A stretch of 20,000 nt of DNA. Source: Chiloscyllium plagiosum (Eukaryota). Each line of letters starts with the position of its first letter. Position 1 is the stretch's first letter. Positions 1,061-15,569 of this stretch are shown in pieces. The stretch spans positions 103,727,360 to 103,747,359 of the forward strand of contig NC_057717.1 in the NCBI RefSeq assembly GCF_004010195.1, given 5' to 3'. The position numbers were made by a program, and so were the translations under genes. The notes below the pieces were generated by a model. That model made no database searches and had not been told where the DNA came from. It saw nothing but the letters and a program-made list of their open reading frames with translations.

Positions 1061-1134
1061 GAAGGCTGGAATCGAACCCGGGTACCCAGCGCCGTGAGGG
1101 AGCAGTGCTAGCCACTGAGCCACCGCATCGCCCC
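1061..1134 (-). mobile_element. HE1-like SINE 5' tRNA-like head fragment
   Basis: Reverse complement reads GGTGGCTCAGTGGCTAGCACTGCT...GGGTTCGATTCCAGCC (A and B boxes), the same head as the other copies. Confidence 0.8.
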
Positions 1135-1368
1135 CTTGGTGAGTGCCTTGTGCAGAAGTGAAGAGATTGTGAGGGAATTCCAGATGTGGAGTGGTGGGCG
1201 GTTATGTCCCAGCAGCTATCCAAGTCCTGCAGCTCATACGCGGCACATCCAGCCCGACAGCCTCACCTTGGTGAAGTGGGAACTGTGCCCGTGATTGTCT
1301 GACTCCGGCCAGGTGATGCCCTGACACGTCCCTGGTTGCCCTTTAAGAATGGCTTGCCTCACCCCTGC

Positions 1369-1821
1369 GTGACTCAGCAGAAAAAGCAAAACCGTTGCGA
1401 GGGGGAATGACGGCCCGTAAAACGAGCAGGCTGTGCCTCCAGAACCCTCCTTACCTCTGTCTCCCTGAGCGATCGCTCCCGATGACTGAGTGTAGAGAGT
1501 AGGGCAGCCTGCAGACAATGGAGTAAATGGTCAGGCAATAGCTGGAACTCCATGGGTCCTGGGTGCCACTCCCTGGGCTAAGGCACTACAGTGACTCAGC
1601 ATTCCTCTTCGCCCCGAAGGGATTCTGCACTGTCACGGGCTCGTTCATTGTCCCCGAACACAACAGTGACTCAGCATTCCTCACGCATTGTCACTTGGAC
1701 ACGAATGAAAAGGCAGGAATTCTGCACTGTCATGGTTAGTTCATTCACTCGGTGCCCAGTAATGAGTCAACTAACTGATTGTGACAGATTTCCCTCCCGG
1801 GCTAGAGGCACATGACAGTGC
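1369..1821. promoter_or_regulatory. Cluster of antioxidant response elements (NRF2/sMAF ARE, RTGACnnnGC)
   Basis: + strand GTGACTCAGCA at 1369-1379, 1591-1601 and 1666-1676, ATGACAGTGC at 1812-1821; - strand GTGACAGTGCA (1626-1636), GTGACAATGCG (1684-1694), ATGACAGTGCA (1723-1733); AP-1 TGAGTCA at 1763-1769. Lies upstream of a GCLM-like gene, a known NRF2 target class. Confidence 0.75.
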
Positions 1822-1994
1822 TGGCTATCGGTTGCACGCTCAGTTCATTGACTGAGTGCCCAGCAGTGAGTCCCACCCACTGGAGCGGACTGTTCAGTCC
1901 TTAAACTCTGTGCTTTCTTCTGGCTGGTTCCTCGCCTGTATTTCCCCTGACGTGGGTGTGCCTCAGTGATGCCTTAGAGCAGGAATTCCCTGTT

Positions 1995-2000
1995 TATAAA
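1995..2000 (+). promoter_or_regulatory. Putative TATA box of the GCLM-like gene
   Basis: TATAAA between the ARE cluster and the candidate start codon, about 135 bp upstream of ATG 2133. Confidence 0.5.
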
Positions 2001-2132
2001 CCGATTAGAGGAGAGGAATTACTTGTGGCTCTACTAGTGTTTGAGGAACTCTGTTAGAATCAACACAGCTGAACTCACTCAGATAAAAGCCAGCACCTCC
2101 AGCACTTTCCAGAAAGCACCTTGCCGGCAAAC

Positions 2133-2163
2133 ATGACTGAAGACAAGAACGAAATCTTTAATC
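2133..2163 (+). CDS. GCLM: Probable start of GCLM-like coding exon 1 (MTEDKNEIFN...), truncated by assembly gap
   Basis: ATG in good context (GCAAACATGA, A at -3) downstream of TATA and AREs and upstream of exon 2. The conserved exon-1 motif (TGNL..W..L.KKCP) is not found in the sequenced bases, so it is inferred to lie in the gap. Confidence 0.5.
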
Positions 2164-2663
2164 NNNNNNNNNNNNNNNNNNNNNNNNNNNNNNNNNNNNN
2201 NNNNNNNNNNNNNNNNNNNNNNNNNNNNNNNNNNNNNNNNNNNNNNNNNNNNNNNNNNNNNNNNNNNNNNNNNNNNNNNNNNNNNNNNNNNNNNNNNNNN
2301 NNNNNNNNNNNNNNNNNNNNNNNNNNNNNNNNNNNNNNNNNNNNNNNNNNNNNNNNNNNNNNNNNNNNNNNNNNNNNNNNNNNNNNNNNNNNNNNNNNNN
2401 NNNNNNNNNNNNNNNNNNNNNNNNNNNNNNNNNNNNNNNNNNNNNNNNNNNNNNNNNNNNNNNNNNNNNNNNNNNNNNNNNNNNNNNNNNNNNNNNNNNN
2501 NNNNNNNNNNNNNNNNNNNNNNNNNNNNNNNNNNNNNNNNNNNNNNNNNNNNNNNNNNNNNNNNNNNNNNNNNNNNNNNNNNNNNNNNNNNNNNNNNNNN
2601 NNNNNNNNNNNNNNNNNNNNNNNNNNNNNNNNNNNNNNNNNNNNNNNNNNNNNNNNNNNNNNN
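2164..2663. other. Assembly gap (500 N)
   Basis: Run of N. Confidence 1.
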
Positions 2664-2934
2664 GTCTATCACACCAGGTTTGTGTTATTGACAGAGCTCT
2701 GGGCTCCACTTCCTAATTCACTCTATCTCTTTCTCCTTACTTACTTGCCCTCCTATTGACCAAGATTCCAATTATATGTCCCCATATCTCGCAAAGGGTC
2801 TCCACAAGCCAGCGGTGCTTGATAATGCCTCCTGGGACACTGAACATGCTATATAAATGCAGGTTGATGTTGTTACTCTGGGGTGGCCCATCTCTCCACC
2901 TTTCGCTACCAAGCCCCTCTGATCTCTTTTCCAG

Positions 2935-3006
2935 GTCCTGGATTGTCTCAAGGCTGCTTTGTGTGACTGGGGTTCAAAGTGCAACTCTGATCGACCGGAA
3001 GGGAAG
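2935..3006 (+). CDS. GCLM: GCLM-like coding exon 2 (VLDCLKAALCDWGSKCNSDRPEGK)
   Basis: Acceptor ctcttttccag, donor AAG|gtgagt, phase 0/0, 72 bp; aligns to vertebrate GCLM LHDCIQKTLNEWSSQINPD. Confidence 0.85.
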
Positions 3007-3130
3007 GTGAGTCTTCATCCTTGGCTACCATGCATCCCAGGCTCTGCTCAGAACTGCAGTGACCTCTCGGGACGCTGTGTTCCGATAAGACGCAATGTCA
3101 ACTTAGGAGAAATCAATCTGCCCTCGCATT

Positions 3131-5755: not shown

Positions 5756-5765
5756 TCCGTGACTC

Positions 5766-6380
5766 TCCCTATCACTGTCACCTCCTCCAGCCCCTACATC
5801 CCCTCCCTATCTCTGTAAACCTCCTCCAGCCTCTACACCCCCTCCCTATCTCTGTAACCTTCCCCAGCACCTACACCCCCTCCCTATCTCTGTAACCTTC
5901 CCCAGCACCTACACCCCCTCCCTATCTCTGTAACCTTCCCCAGCACCTACACCCCCTCCCTATCTCTGTAACCTTCCCCAGCACCTACACCCCCTCCCTA
6001 TCTCTGTAACCTTCCCCAGCACCTACACCCCCTCCCTATCTCTGTAACCTTCCCCAGCACCTACACCCCCTCCCTATCTCTGTAACCTTCCCCAGCACCT
6101 ACACCCCCTCCCTATCTCTGTAACCTTCCCCAGCACCTACACCCCCTCCCTATCTCTGTAACCTTCCCCAGCACCTACACCCCCTCCCTATCTCTGTAAC
6201 CTTCCCCAGCACCTACACCCCCTCCCTATCTCTGTAACCTTCCCCAGCACCTACACCCCCTCCCTATCTCTGTAACCTTCCCCAGCACCTACACCCCCTC
6301 CCTATCTCTGTAATCTCCTCCAGCCCCTACACCTCCTCCCTATCTCTGTCACCTCCTCCAGCCCCTACACCCCCTCCCTA
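5766..6380. repeat. 38-bp minisatellite, about 16 copies, running into a gap
   Basis: Unit TCCCTATCTCTGTAACCTTCCCCAGCACCTACACCCCC (e.g. starts at 5881 and 5919); identical in the centre, diverged at the edges. Confidence 0.97.
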
Positions 6381-7774: not shown

Positions 7775-7831
7775 CCAAACTGTTCATCTGTCAATCTGAC
7801 TTAAGGACTGTTAAGGAGGCGGTGATGTGTG
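7775..7831 (+). CDS. GCLM: GCLM-like coding exon 4 ((A)KLFICQSDLRTVKEAVMC)
   Basis: Acceptor tttctccttcccacag, donor G|gtaagt, 57 bp, phase 1/1; AKLFI...AV motif of GCLM. Confidence 0.92.
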
Positions 7832-9311: not shown

Positions 9312-9514
9312 CCTGCTCGGAGCTCGGGGTCAGTCAGCTGGATTCGGTCATTCTCTCAGTTGTGGCCCTGTCGGAGGAGAACCGGCCAACTCTGGAGGAC
9401 CTGATGCCTTACTGGAAGGAACTGGAGGTCTTGGTCCAAGGGCAGAAGGTTGCATCCATCGGAGTCTCAGACTTGGACCGGGAAGTGCTGGAGGCCTTGT
9501 GCCAACACGCTCAG
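9312..9514 (+). CDS. GCLM: GCLM-like coding exon 5 ((A)CSELGVSQLDSVILSVVALSEENRPTLEDLMPYWKELEVLVQGQKVASIGVSDLDREVLEALCQHAQ)
   Basis: Acceptor tttccaattacag, donor CAG|gtatgc, 203 bp, phase 1/0; QLDSVI, PYW.ELE.LVQ and IG.SDLD motifs of GCLM (aldo-keto reductase-like fold). Confidence 0.97.
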
Positions 9515-10048: not shown

Positions 10049-11040
10049 TTGTGTCTCTGTGTGTGAGTGAGTGTATGAATGTGTGTGACTGTCTGTGTGA
10101 GAGAGTGTGTGTGCGCACATGTGTGAGTGTATGTATGTGTATGCATGTGTGCCTCACTGTACATATACGTGTCTATGTGGGCAAGTGTGTGTACGTGTGT
10201 ATGTATGTGTGTCTGTGCATTCCTGTATGTACATGCAGATGCATATGTGTCCATGTGTATGTATCAGTGAGTCTTGTGCATGCATGTGTGTCTGTGCATG
10301 CATATATGTGTGTGCAAGTGTGTAGAGTGTTGTGTTTGGGAGTGTACAGACAGTGGTGTGTGATTGTATAGTGGGTGTGCACATGTATGTGAATGTGTGT
10401 CAGCAAGTGTGTAAAGTGTTGTGTAAGTGTTGGTGTGTGTGGGTGCATGTGTATGCATGCCTGTGTGAGTGATTGTGTGCTTGTGCGTGAGAGTGCGTGT
10501 GTGTCTGTGTGTATGAGTGTGGATGTGTGAGAGAGTGTGCATGCATCTGTGTGTGTGAGGACTGTTTGTGTGTTTGCACGAGTGTGTGTGTATATTTGTA
10601 TATGTGTGTGTATATGCATGTGTGTCTGACTATGCATATGCCTGTCTATGTGGGTATGTGTGTGCACATATGCGTGTGTGTCTGTGCATGCATTTGTATA
10701 TGTTCGTGTGTATGTGTCGACGAGTCTGTGTGCATGTATGTGTGTCTGTGTATGCATATATGTATGTGCGTTTATGTAGTGTGCATACAAGTGTGTGTGT
10801 GCAAGTGTGCAGAGTGTGTTGTGTGTGGGAATGTGTAGTGTGTGTGTGAACAAGTGGGGTGAGAATGTGTAGTGCTTGTGCACATGTATATGAGTGTGTG
10901 TGTGTGTATGTGACCAAGTATGTAAAGCTTGTGTGAGTGTCTGTGTTTGTGTGAGCGTGTGACAGAGAGAGGGTGTGTGTGTGTGTGTGAGAAAGAGAGA
11001 GAGAGAGTGTGTGTGTATGTATGTGTGTGAGTATGTAGTG
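10049..11040. repeat. Degenerate (TG)n/(CA)n-type low-complexity tract, about 1 kb, with (GA)n patches
   Basis: Mostly alternating purine-pyrimidine TG/TA/CA runs; source of the many H/T- and C/V-rich spurious ORFs. Confidence 0.97.
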
Positions 11041-11439: not shown

Positions 11440-11554
11440 GTACAACCCAGCAGTAATCAGGTGAACCTGGCCTCTTGCTGTGTAATACCACCTGACCTGG
11501 CTGCCTTCGCCAAAGACAATAATATCCAACTGCTGACCCATAATGACCCCGCAG
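11440..11554 (+). CDS. GCLM: GCLM-like coding exon 6 (VQPSSNQVNLASCCVIPPDLAAFAKDNNIQLLTHNDPA)
   Basis: Acceptor tttttactcccag, donor CAG|gtaagc, 115 bp, phase 0/1; signature SNQVNLASCCV.PPDL.AFAK...IQLLTHNDP. Confidence 0.98.
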
Positions 11555-14102: not shown

Positions 14103-14281
14103 ATATCCTCCCAGTGGGATCTTTCCAGCAAGCCCTGCGTACCAGTCTGCAGGACCCTCGTGCTGATGAGTGGGTACCACATTGGATCCTTCGATACTCA
14201 GCGGTCATTAAGGAGAGAGGAATCATCAAGTCAAAGGGTTACATGGTCCATGCTGAGAAACCAGCAGCAAGACACCAATGA
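14103..14281 (+). CDS. GCLM: GCLM-like last coding exon ((D)ILPVGSFQQALRTSLQDPRADEWVPHWILRYSAVIKERGIIKSKGYMVHAEKPAARHQ*)
   Basis: Acceptor catccgtctag, phase 1, 179 bp, TGA stop at 14279-14281; EWVP.W.LRYS...K.RGIIKSKGY is the GCLM C-terminal signature. Confidence 0.97.
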
Positions 14282-14884
14282 AGTTGCCTTAAGGGCAGTT
14301 GGATTTGACGCTGCCCCAGTCTGGTTCTGACTCACTCACATTCGGAAAGCTTGGTGCACAGGAAGACACAAGCTAGAATCAGCCCTGAGAAAGGACATTT
14401 GTGAGAAATGTCATTCTCCCCTCTCTTTCTTTAAGACTTGGCCCTTATGTTTTCTTTCTATGACCATTTACAGTTACCGAAACTGCATCTCAAATTGTTT
14501 ATCGCAATGGACGCATCCACCGAAAGCTGGTTGCTACAACTCCAATCGAGTGTTATGTTGTTAATCAGACTCACTAGGTTGCCACGTTATGGGATATTAA
14601 AGCAATTCTTACATTTCTATAGCAGCTTTCACGAACTCCAAGATGACTCCACGCAATGATTTGCAGCCAATGTTGTACCTGGAAACTCTGGGCAAAGTTG
14701 TGCATAAATTAAGACATCCAGAAACAGCCATGTGACAAATTGGCCAGCAAACTCAGTTGAGGGATTGTGAAACAAGGGAGTTAAAGCGAATTCAATTCCA
14801 GAAACACAAATAAAGAGAAGGAAAATGAATGAGTAGAGAGAAATAAGAGACAGAACGTAAAAGTAACAAAATAATCAAAGTATT

Positions 14885-15188
14885 TTAGTTAGAATCCCTA
14901 CAGTGTGGAAACAGGGGCCCAACAAGTCCACACCAACCCTTCAAAGAGTCACCCACCCAGACCCATTTCCCTCTGACTAATGCACCTATCACTATGGGCT
15001 ATTTAGCATGGCCAAGCCATCTAACCTGCACATCTTTGGACTGTGGGAGGAAACTGGAGCAAACCCACACAGACACGGGGGGAATGTATAAACTTCACAC
15101 AGACAGGTGCCCTAGGGTGGAATCGAACCTGGGGCCCTGATGCTGAGCAGCAGCAGCAGTGCTAGCCACTGAGCCACCATGCCACCCC
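14885..15188 (-). mobile_element. HE1-like V-SINE
   Basis: Head, V-core and tail as in the other copies. Confidence 0.9.
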
Positions 15189-15569
15189 AAATTTAAAATT
15201 GTAATTTTTTTTTAACGAGGAAAAGTTGACTAGCTGAGGTAATGAGATTGATCAGGTTAAATTGTTCCCTCTACGTACCAATTAGTTTGAGTGGTTTTGC
15301 ATTAAATTATCATATCATGAATAGGATATCAATACTATTTAGTATGAGCCCTAACATACTCAAGGGAATTTCTACAATTAATGCTGAAATTATTTAAAAA
15401 TAACAGGTGCTTTACCACAAAAGATGGTGGCAAGCCAAGTGTGGAGCATTGTAAAATCGAGAAGCTATTTCTGCAGATTTGCAATGCAACCTGGCCCCCT
15501 GAGTTTCCTCATTTGTACGTTTACCAACAGCATGCAGTGTTAACTGTGATTTTATCCCCATCTCACAGA

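Follow-up and report, generated by a model that had tools for sequence, protein, structure and literature searches.

Seven candidate antioxidant response elements upstream of a second GCLM gene in the shark Chiloscyllium plagiosum

Background

GCLM is described as a classic NRF2 target with antioxidant response elements (AREs) close to its transcription start site (TSS) (excerpts of PMC6128101 and PMC5762830), and the mammalian promoter carries a TSS-proximal, NRF2-bound ARE (PMC6128101, in excerpt), which in Gclm is listed at −312 (PMC6007815, in excerpt). The optimal site, RTGACTCAGCA, is shared by dimers of small Maf (sMaf) proteins with NRF2, BACH1 or p45 NF-E2 (same excerpt), its 5′ purine being read by NRF2 and its GC box by sMaf (PMC9756947, in excerpt), and loss of BACH1 modestly raises glutathione genes (PMC12561426, in excerpt). 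Clusters of AREs are found in the E1 and E2 enhancers of HMOX1, which hold two and four elements common to NRF2-sMaf and BACH1-sMaf; as excerpted, the source (PMC9287733) regards cooperativity among them as possible rather than assured, and treats the effect of ARE number on the steepness of induction as open.

The locus described here lies in a 20,000-nt stretch of Chiloscyllium plagiosum DNA (the window, to which all coordinates refer), where seven ARE cores precede a GCLM-family gene by a few hundred bases, a placement similar to that of the mammalian element. Against the single element listed for Gclm in the excerpt of PMC6007815, the shark gene has seven cores, derived in part from tandem units, and the gene is not an ortholog but a paralog, ~52% identical to the canonical GCLM of both mammals and sharks; it can be aligned over its full length with canonical vertebrate GCLM (PF00248 fold), but falls in a separate clade with 100/100 support. 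Compared with HMOX1, the shark locus packs seven predicted sites, some on each strand, into a single ATG-proximal block of 453 bp. Clustered AREs are already known, and the element is therefore not a new kind of system.

The downstream gene

A sequence-only reading of the window had placed a GCLM-like gene downstream of the motifs and compared it with mammalian GCLM. An intact, spliced gene of the GCLM family is present, but it is a second paralog and not the mammalian ortholog; the same species has a separate canonical GCLM, so that the comparison with mammals crosses paralogs. The coding exons are as follows.

2133 to 2163, + strand: start codon and first ten codons, coding exon 1 (the remaining ~92 nt lie in an N gap)
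2935 to 3006, + strand: exon 2
5226 (or 5235) to 5319, + strand: exon 3 (RNA contigs use the 5226 acceptor)
7775 to 7831, + strand: exon 4
9312 to 9514, + strand: exon 5
11440 to 11554, + strand: exon 6
14103 to 14281, + strand: exon 7

Joined at GT-AG ends, six exons yield an open frame, and the N gap between exons 1 and 2 is bridged by RNA contigs from runs X1 and X19, the gene being spliced in RNA from two organisms. The predicted protein is 100% identical over 236 aligned amino acids to a C. plagiosum GCLM-like entry (P0123), 94–95% identical to entries from C. punctatum and Hemiscyllium, and 52–54% identical to canonical GCLM of sharks, lungfish, gar and bat. It retains the C-terminal blocks of the family and a Cys-Cys pair, and in the full-length GCLM alignment, whose 18 rows range from amphioxus to bat, 44 columns are invariant. 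The aldo-keto reductase family PF00248 is precomputed for the closest full-length relatives of the paralog (exon 5 alone gives E 0.13), and a search of the PDB returned aldo-keto reductases only, with GCLM structures absent. The paralog may still modulate GCLC.

Several minor features of the gene were recorded. The two exon 3 acceptors lie 9 nt apart (5226/5235), and RNA of both organisms uses the upstream one. The break of the X1 contigs right after exon 1 (~2255, in the N gap) points to a second path, for example a retained intron or an alternative exon within the gap. Intron 3 holds a 38-bp minisatellite (5765–6380, 16 copies, 96% matches) which runs into an assembly gap, whilst intron 5 has ~1 kb of degenerate GT-rich low-complexity sequence (10050–11040). 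Downstream of the stop codon, polyA-signal hexamers occur at 14596, 14809, 15301 and 15739, with a short interspersed repeat near 14890–15190.

Seven ARE motifs and their excess over chance

Each of the seven RTGACnnnGC motifs, like the AP-1 site, was found again at the position given in the sequence-only reading.

1369 to 1379, + strand: ARE/CsMBE 1, GTGACTCAGCA, AP-1 embedded; not part of the tandem array described below
1591 to 1601, + strand: ARE/CsMBE 2, GTGACTCAGCA, in array unit A; duplicate pair with site 4
1626 to 1636, − strand: ARE 3, GTGACAGTGCA, at the head of unit B; duplicate pair with site 6
1666 to 1676, + strand: ARE/CsMBE 4, GTGACTCAGCA, in unit B
1684 to 1694, − strand: ARE 5, GTGACAATGCG, at the tail of unit B; the other units have no intact copy
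1723 to 1738 (core 1723 to 1733), − strand: ARE 6, the only match in the window to the extended TMAnnRTGAYnnnGCR
1812 to 1821, + strand: ARE 7, ATGACAGTGC, followed by T and hence without an 11th purine
1763 to 1769, no strand assigned: AP-1/TRE TGAGTCA, without a GC box; its slot in unit C corresponds by homology to that of sites 2 and 4

The cluster lies 321–764 bp upstream of the ATG (2133), and between 1369 and 1821 it holds seven of the 11 RTGACnnnGC matches in the window and all three window copies of TGACTCAGC. How many sites qualify depends on the definition: all seven match the 10-mer RTGACnnnGC, six the 11-mer RTGACnnnGCR, three the optimal RTGACTCAGCA with a TRE centre (one of which ends in G in a second organism, B), and one the extended TMAnnRTGAYnnnGCR, for which the background is 0.009 per kb; the extended consensus is that of PMC6007815, in excerpt, and ARE classes without TMA also exist. 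Every site has the 5′ purine, and the TCA centre is absent from four of the seven. NRF2-MAFG binding was ~68-fold weaker for one tested variant altered at this centre (PMC13763455, in excerpt), and by analogy the four sites without it may be bound more weakly. By eye, 16 of 28 bases in the 3′ flanks of the sites are A/T, which is not persuasive as an A/T-rich flank.

Counts of the motif on shuffled backgrounds bear out the clustering: none of 3000 dinucleotide shuffles of the kilobase upstream of the ATG contained seven motifs (mean 0.33, maximum 4), nor did any of 300 whole-window shuffles give seven within any 453 bp (maximum 4), and a second-order Markov simulation of 3 Mb produced no cluster of even three. 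Amongst 8192 motifs of the same shape scored on 1–2163, the ARE was the sole one to reach seven, followed by one at five and five at four. Not all seven sites arose separately. After removing copies, four to five independent origins are left (lineages counted by eye), for which Poisson expectations per kb are 1–3e-5 (four) and 2–9e-7 (five) for a 453-bp cluster. A cluster of four origins is rare for one promoter, yet some tens per gigabase would occur by chance. The ARE cluster is real and non-random.

Other response elements were sought in 1200–2163: XRE, NF-kB, TonE, AARE and GC box gave no match, whilst one MRE-like and two half-CRE matches are at background level.

A degenerate tandem array

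Six of the seven AREs sit inside a degenerate array, the features of which are listed here.

1545 to 1905, no strand assigned: degenerate tandem array of about four units of 75–104 bp
1545 to 1617, no strand assigned: unit A (limits approximate)
1615 to 1712, no strand assigned: unit B (limits approximate)
1712 to 1812, no strand assigned: unit C (limits approximate)
1815 to 1905, no strand assigned: unit D (limits approximate)
1643, 1739 and 1843 (1643 to 1849), + strand: GTTCATT, in three array units, three of the four copies in the window

Whole units share 42–62% pairwise identity, within which shorter blocks are far better preserved. A 24-nt block (1584–1607/1659–1682, 96% identical) holds sites 1591 and 1666, a 32-nt block (1618–1649/1715–1745, 84%) holds sites 1627 and 1724, and a third pair (1738–1768/1842–1872) shares 84% identity. 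Two pairs of AREs are thus copies (1591/1666 and 1627/1724), the slot of the first pair being filled by the AP-1 site at 1763 in unit C and by a decayed copy at 1866 in unit D, whilst ARE 7 at 1812 repeats 1724–1734 exactly, over 11 nt, in inverted orientation. Tandem Repeats Finder did not report the array, because it is too decayed. The cluster is likely, on the pattern of these blocks, to have grown partly by local tandem duplication.

This changes how the layout is read. The sequence-only reading had stressed a dense, convergent plus/minus arrangement; that arrangement exists, but it is partly a product of tandem duplication, so the seven sites are not independent. Much of its convergence is explained by the unit itself, which has its minus-strand site at the head and its plus-strand site towards the tail.

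The GTTCATT copies show no listed difference in runs X1 or X13. Two of them read AGTTCA, which we take to be a nuclear-receptor-like half site; no partner half site was evident by eye.

Copy number and conservation

Four of the 24 sequencing runs listed were aligned to 1130–3110. Whole-genome run X13 (organism B) gave one contig with a flat depth of 10.3 covering 1131–2157, with 37 differences and an 11-nt insertion (~96% identity); short repeats nearby drew extra X13 contigs. The single contig of flat depth indicates that the promoter region is single-copy in this organism at ≥85% likeness, and at that likeness it answers the concern, raised with the sequence-only reading, that the region might be a common interspersed repeat. 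Such a repeat does adjoin it.

827 to 1124, no strand assigned: interspersed short repeat at the edge of the unique promoter region, found many times over in the rest of the window

This repeat is presumably SINE-like. From 1125 to 2163, no further copy was found within the window except one 13-nt match (E 0.75). The CpG observed/expected ratio is 0.5–0.6 across 800–1900 compared with 0.30 for the window, a mild elevation that comes partly from the repeat.

Conservation of the cores was compared with one 96%-identical relative, and none of the 36 differences listed for organism B falls in the 70 ARE core bases (2.45 expected, P 0.075); a post hoc count that also takes in the AP-1 site and the alleles of X1 gives P 0.04. 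The core of ARE 1 is the same in X1 and X13, with a change in its flank at 1381 in X1, whilst 1601 A>G in organism B leaves ARE 2 an RTGACnnnGCR site and removes the perfect 11-mer through its 11th A. The array overall diverges from organism B at the background rate of 3.5%. At 96% identity, motif conservation is not significant and is only suggestive of constraint.

These comparisons bear on whether slippage multiplied one or two functional AREs, leaving the additional copies as neutral passengers in a minisatellite that is decaying. Tandem units are plainly present, in units C and D the homologous ARE slot is decayed already, and both the background divergence of the array and the non-significant core conservation are what such copying would leave. 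Against it, ARE copies have stayed intact in units that share only 42–62% identity, neither site 1 nor site 5 has a second copy, and four to five independent origins still have an expectation of about 1e-5 per kb or below. Duplication should raise other words too, yet among the 8192 motifs of this shape none gained as many copies as the ARE, the only one to reach seven; this counts for a functional cluster. We consider neutral copying improbable.

Transcription across the cluster

The sequence-only reading had expected transcription to start near 2025–2030. RNA was found upstream of 2025 in all three RNA runs aligned, which leaves a start at that position unsupported.

1995 to 2000, + strand: TATAAA, crossed by RNA reads and contigs
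1130 to 2163, no strand assigned: unbroken X1 RNA contig joined to exon 1, covering the whole cluster and extending 217 nt further upstream

A start 30 nt from the TATA box is at most one of several. Run X1 behaves as RNA, with a spliced contig of exons 1-2-3 and no cover on the visible introns, and its contig over the cluster has a mean depth of 37.6, compared with 33 for the coding contig. Neither the strand nor the start can be read from contigs, and low upstream cover could be hidden in a flat mean depth: by simple arithmetic, ~2 would remain upstream if exon 1 had a depth of 150. A spliced RNA contig from X19 begins at 1936, and in raw run X21, of which 2% was read with five reads aligned, two reads oriented like the spliced read begin at ~1998 and ~2012. 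Transcription probably does not begin only at TATA+30 but at sites dispersed within the cluster or farther upstream, and the RNA across the cluster would represent long-leader or divergent promoter transcripts. A sense transcript across the cluster would carry at least 14 upstream ATGs; if the RNA is sense, such a leader is odd for a simple inducible promoter.

The same RNA could mean that the true promoter lies upstream of 913, or that the RNA is antisense, the cluster being internal to an exon or driving a divergent RNA and not the GCLM paralog. The X1 contig with its 217-nt extension, at a depth like that of the coding contig, is what this would produce, and about two single-cell reads of X21 at ~1185–1353 (from depth bins, probably one molecule) run opposite to the spliced read; five small runs (X10–X12, X17–X18) also contain large shares of the stretch, as a lead only. 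However, the X1 depth is a flat mean under which upstream cover could be ~2, the X19 contig extends no further than 1936, and the single X21 molecule may be a library artefact. No polyA signal pattern was found near the antisense reads at ~1185–1353. We judge a separate upstream or antisense unit quite improbable, a shade more so than neutral copying.

Other roles for the transcribed region were considered and set aside. Folding z scores of −2.3 and −2.9 for the two strands are those expected from inverted motif copies, and a search of Rfam with 800–2163 gave no match at E ≤ 1. A hidden coding sequence in the cluster was rejected, as no overlapping stop-to-stop frame exceeds 98 amino acids and there is no long upstream open-reading frame.

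Candidate regulation by CNC-small-Maf factors

On balance, we lean towards reading the cluster as a functional NRF2/BACH1-type (CNC-small-Maf) stress element, forming a multi-site platform at the 5′ end of the second GCLM gene of sharks and rays. When oxidants or heme cause stress, BACH1-small Maf would give way on the AREs to dimers of small Maf with NRF2 (or NRF1), and this displacement would raise the output of the paralog and likely glutathione synthesis. The ATG-proximal position counts for the stress-cluster reading, as does the membership of the gene in a family that is a classic NRF2 target; the non-significant core conservation, the sites lacking TCA and the position of the cluster inside the X1 transcript count against it. 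Factor binding, induction, any cooperativity and the order of the duplications are what we infer from these data.

NRF2, NF-E2 and BACH proteins are indistinguishable from sequence, and the sites may instead be read mainly by erythroid p45 NF-E2, with BACH1 as the heme sensor, together with GATA1/TAL1, which would make this a red-cell-biased copy of GCLM. A further predicted feature bears on this.

2066 to 2086, + strand: CAGCTG-N9-AGATAA, E-box-GATA composite of GATA1/TAL1 type, predicted

The element fits the definition of the erythroid composite, CANNTG[N6-14]AGATAA (PMC10587717, in excerpt), as one predicted copy in the 5′ leader; no other CANNTG-N6-14-AGATAA occurs in the window (background 0.027 per kb), and none of the differences listed for organism B touches it. 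There are also CACCC-type sites at 1872 and 1954, and RTGACTCAGCA is bound by p45-sMaf too (PMC6007815, in excerpt). The composite was, however, found post hoc, the CACCC pattern is common (0.85 per kb), and searches of open-licence literature for Gclm with p45 NF-E2 in erythrocytes returned only unrelated papers. Erythroid control is unlikely as the main function, though the least unlikely of the alternatives to the stress-cluster reading.

If the cluster does act as a stress element, tandem duplication would appear to have built a stress-response enhancer here, in which intact copies still stand next to decayed ones, and the array would offer a natural allelic series on whether ARE number steepens induction.

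A second GCLM of sharks and rays

Both forms of GCLM occur in Heptranchias, Pristiophorus, Hemitrygon and Narcine, with a mutual identity of 50–57% within each, and separate canonical entries exist for Chiloscyllium, Hemiscyllium, Rhincodon, Stegostoma, Heterodontus, Pristis, Mobula and skates. The paralog is annotated in databases solely as '-like', and in the open-licence PMC and bioRxiv literature we found no description of a shark or ray GCLM paralog.

Three trees were built, of 42, 29 and 26 rows chosen from 127–320 proteins; from the smallest, a tick, one amphioxus, two sharks and two fragments were omitted, while two rows for C. plagiosum and a more complete sequence of the hagfish cluster were brought in. 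In all three, the '-like' form is a 100/100 clade of sharks and rays on longer branches. With amphioxus and crinoid as outgroup, this clade is sister to all canonical jawed-vertebrate GCLM plus hagfish, and a duplication confined to chondrichthyans is rejected by the AU test (p 0.032 and 0.039); the support for the canonical-gnathostome branch is 84/68 and 88/88, and the outgroups are long. The trees give marginal support to a split of the two GCLM forms that predates the divergence of sharks and bony fish.

A profile of nine '-like' proteins ranked 14 clade members first, followed by a drop to canonical scores; these comprise 12 entries with elasmobranch names and two that group with skates. 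Among the best 120 of 465 profile hits (8000 candidates scored), no '-like' member from a chimaera or bony vertebrate appeared. Likewise, the protein collections searched yielded no '-like' entry for Scyliorhinus, Mustelus, Carcharodon, Cetorhinus or chimaera, whilst canonical entries were found for the first four; the form missing from carcharhiniform and lamniform sharks may reflect loss in a common ancestor or an annotation gap. The '-like' genes are mostly on contigs of 12–33 Mb (exceptions of 65, 94, 108 and 376 Mb), and elasmobranch canonical GCLM is on contigs of 61–323 Mb. These sizes presumably fit an ohnolog on a small chromosome.

Taken further, a second GCLM may have been kept from an early vertebrate duplication and lost by bony vertebrates, with tandem multiplication of AREs in bamboo-shark relatives turning it into a dedicated booster of glutathione that is steeply inducible or specific to red cells; we offer this as a speculative and rather unlikely scenario. 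Were it true, housekeeping and stress roles would be split between two GCLM genes, and the paralog would possibly serve hypoxia/reoxygenation tolerance. Epaulette and bamboo sharks are tolerant of hypoxia. A second, apparently ancient GCLM makes a division of labour in vertebrate glutathione synthesis testable.

The '-like' proteins vary in their N-terminal and exon structure. The 5226 acceptor of exon 3 adds three residues that are missing from the whale shark and other entries, a whale shark isoform (P0002) is without the exon-2 segment, and several batoid and sawshark paralogs (P0007, P0009, P0011 and P0014) carry an N-terminal extension of 5–9 residues ahead of the methionine used here.
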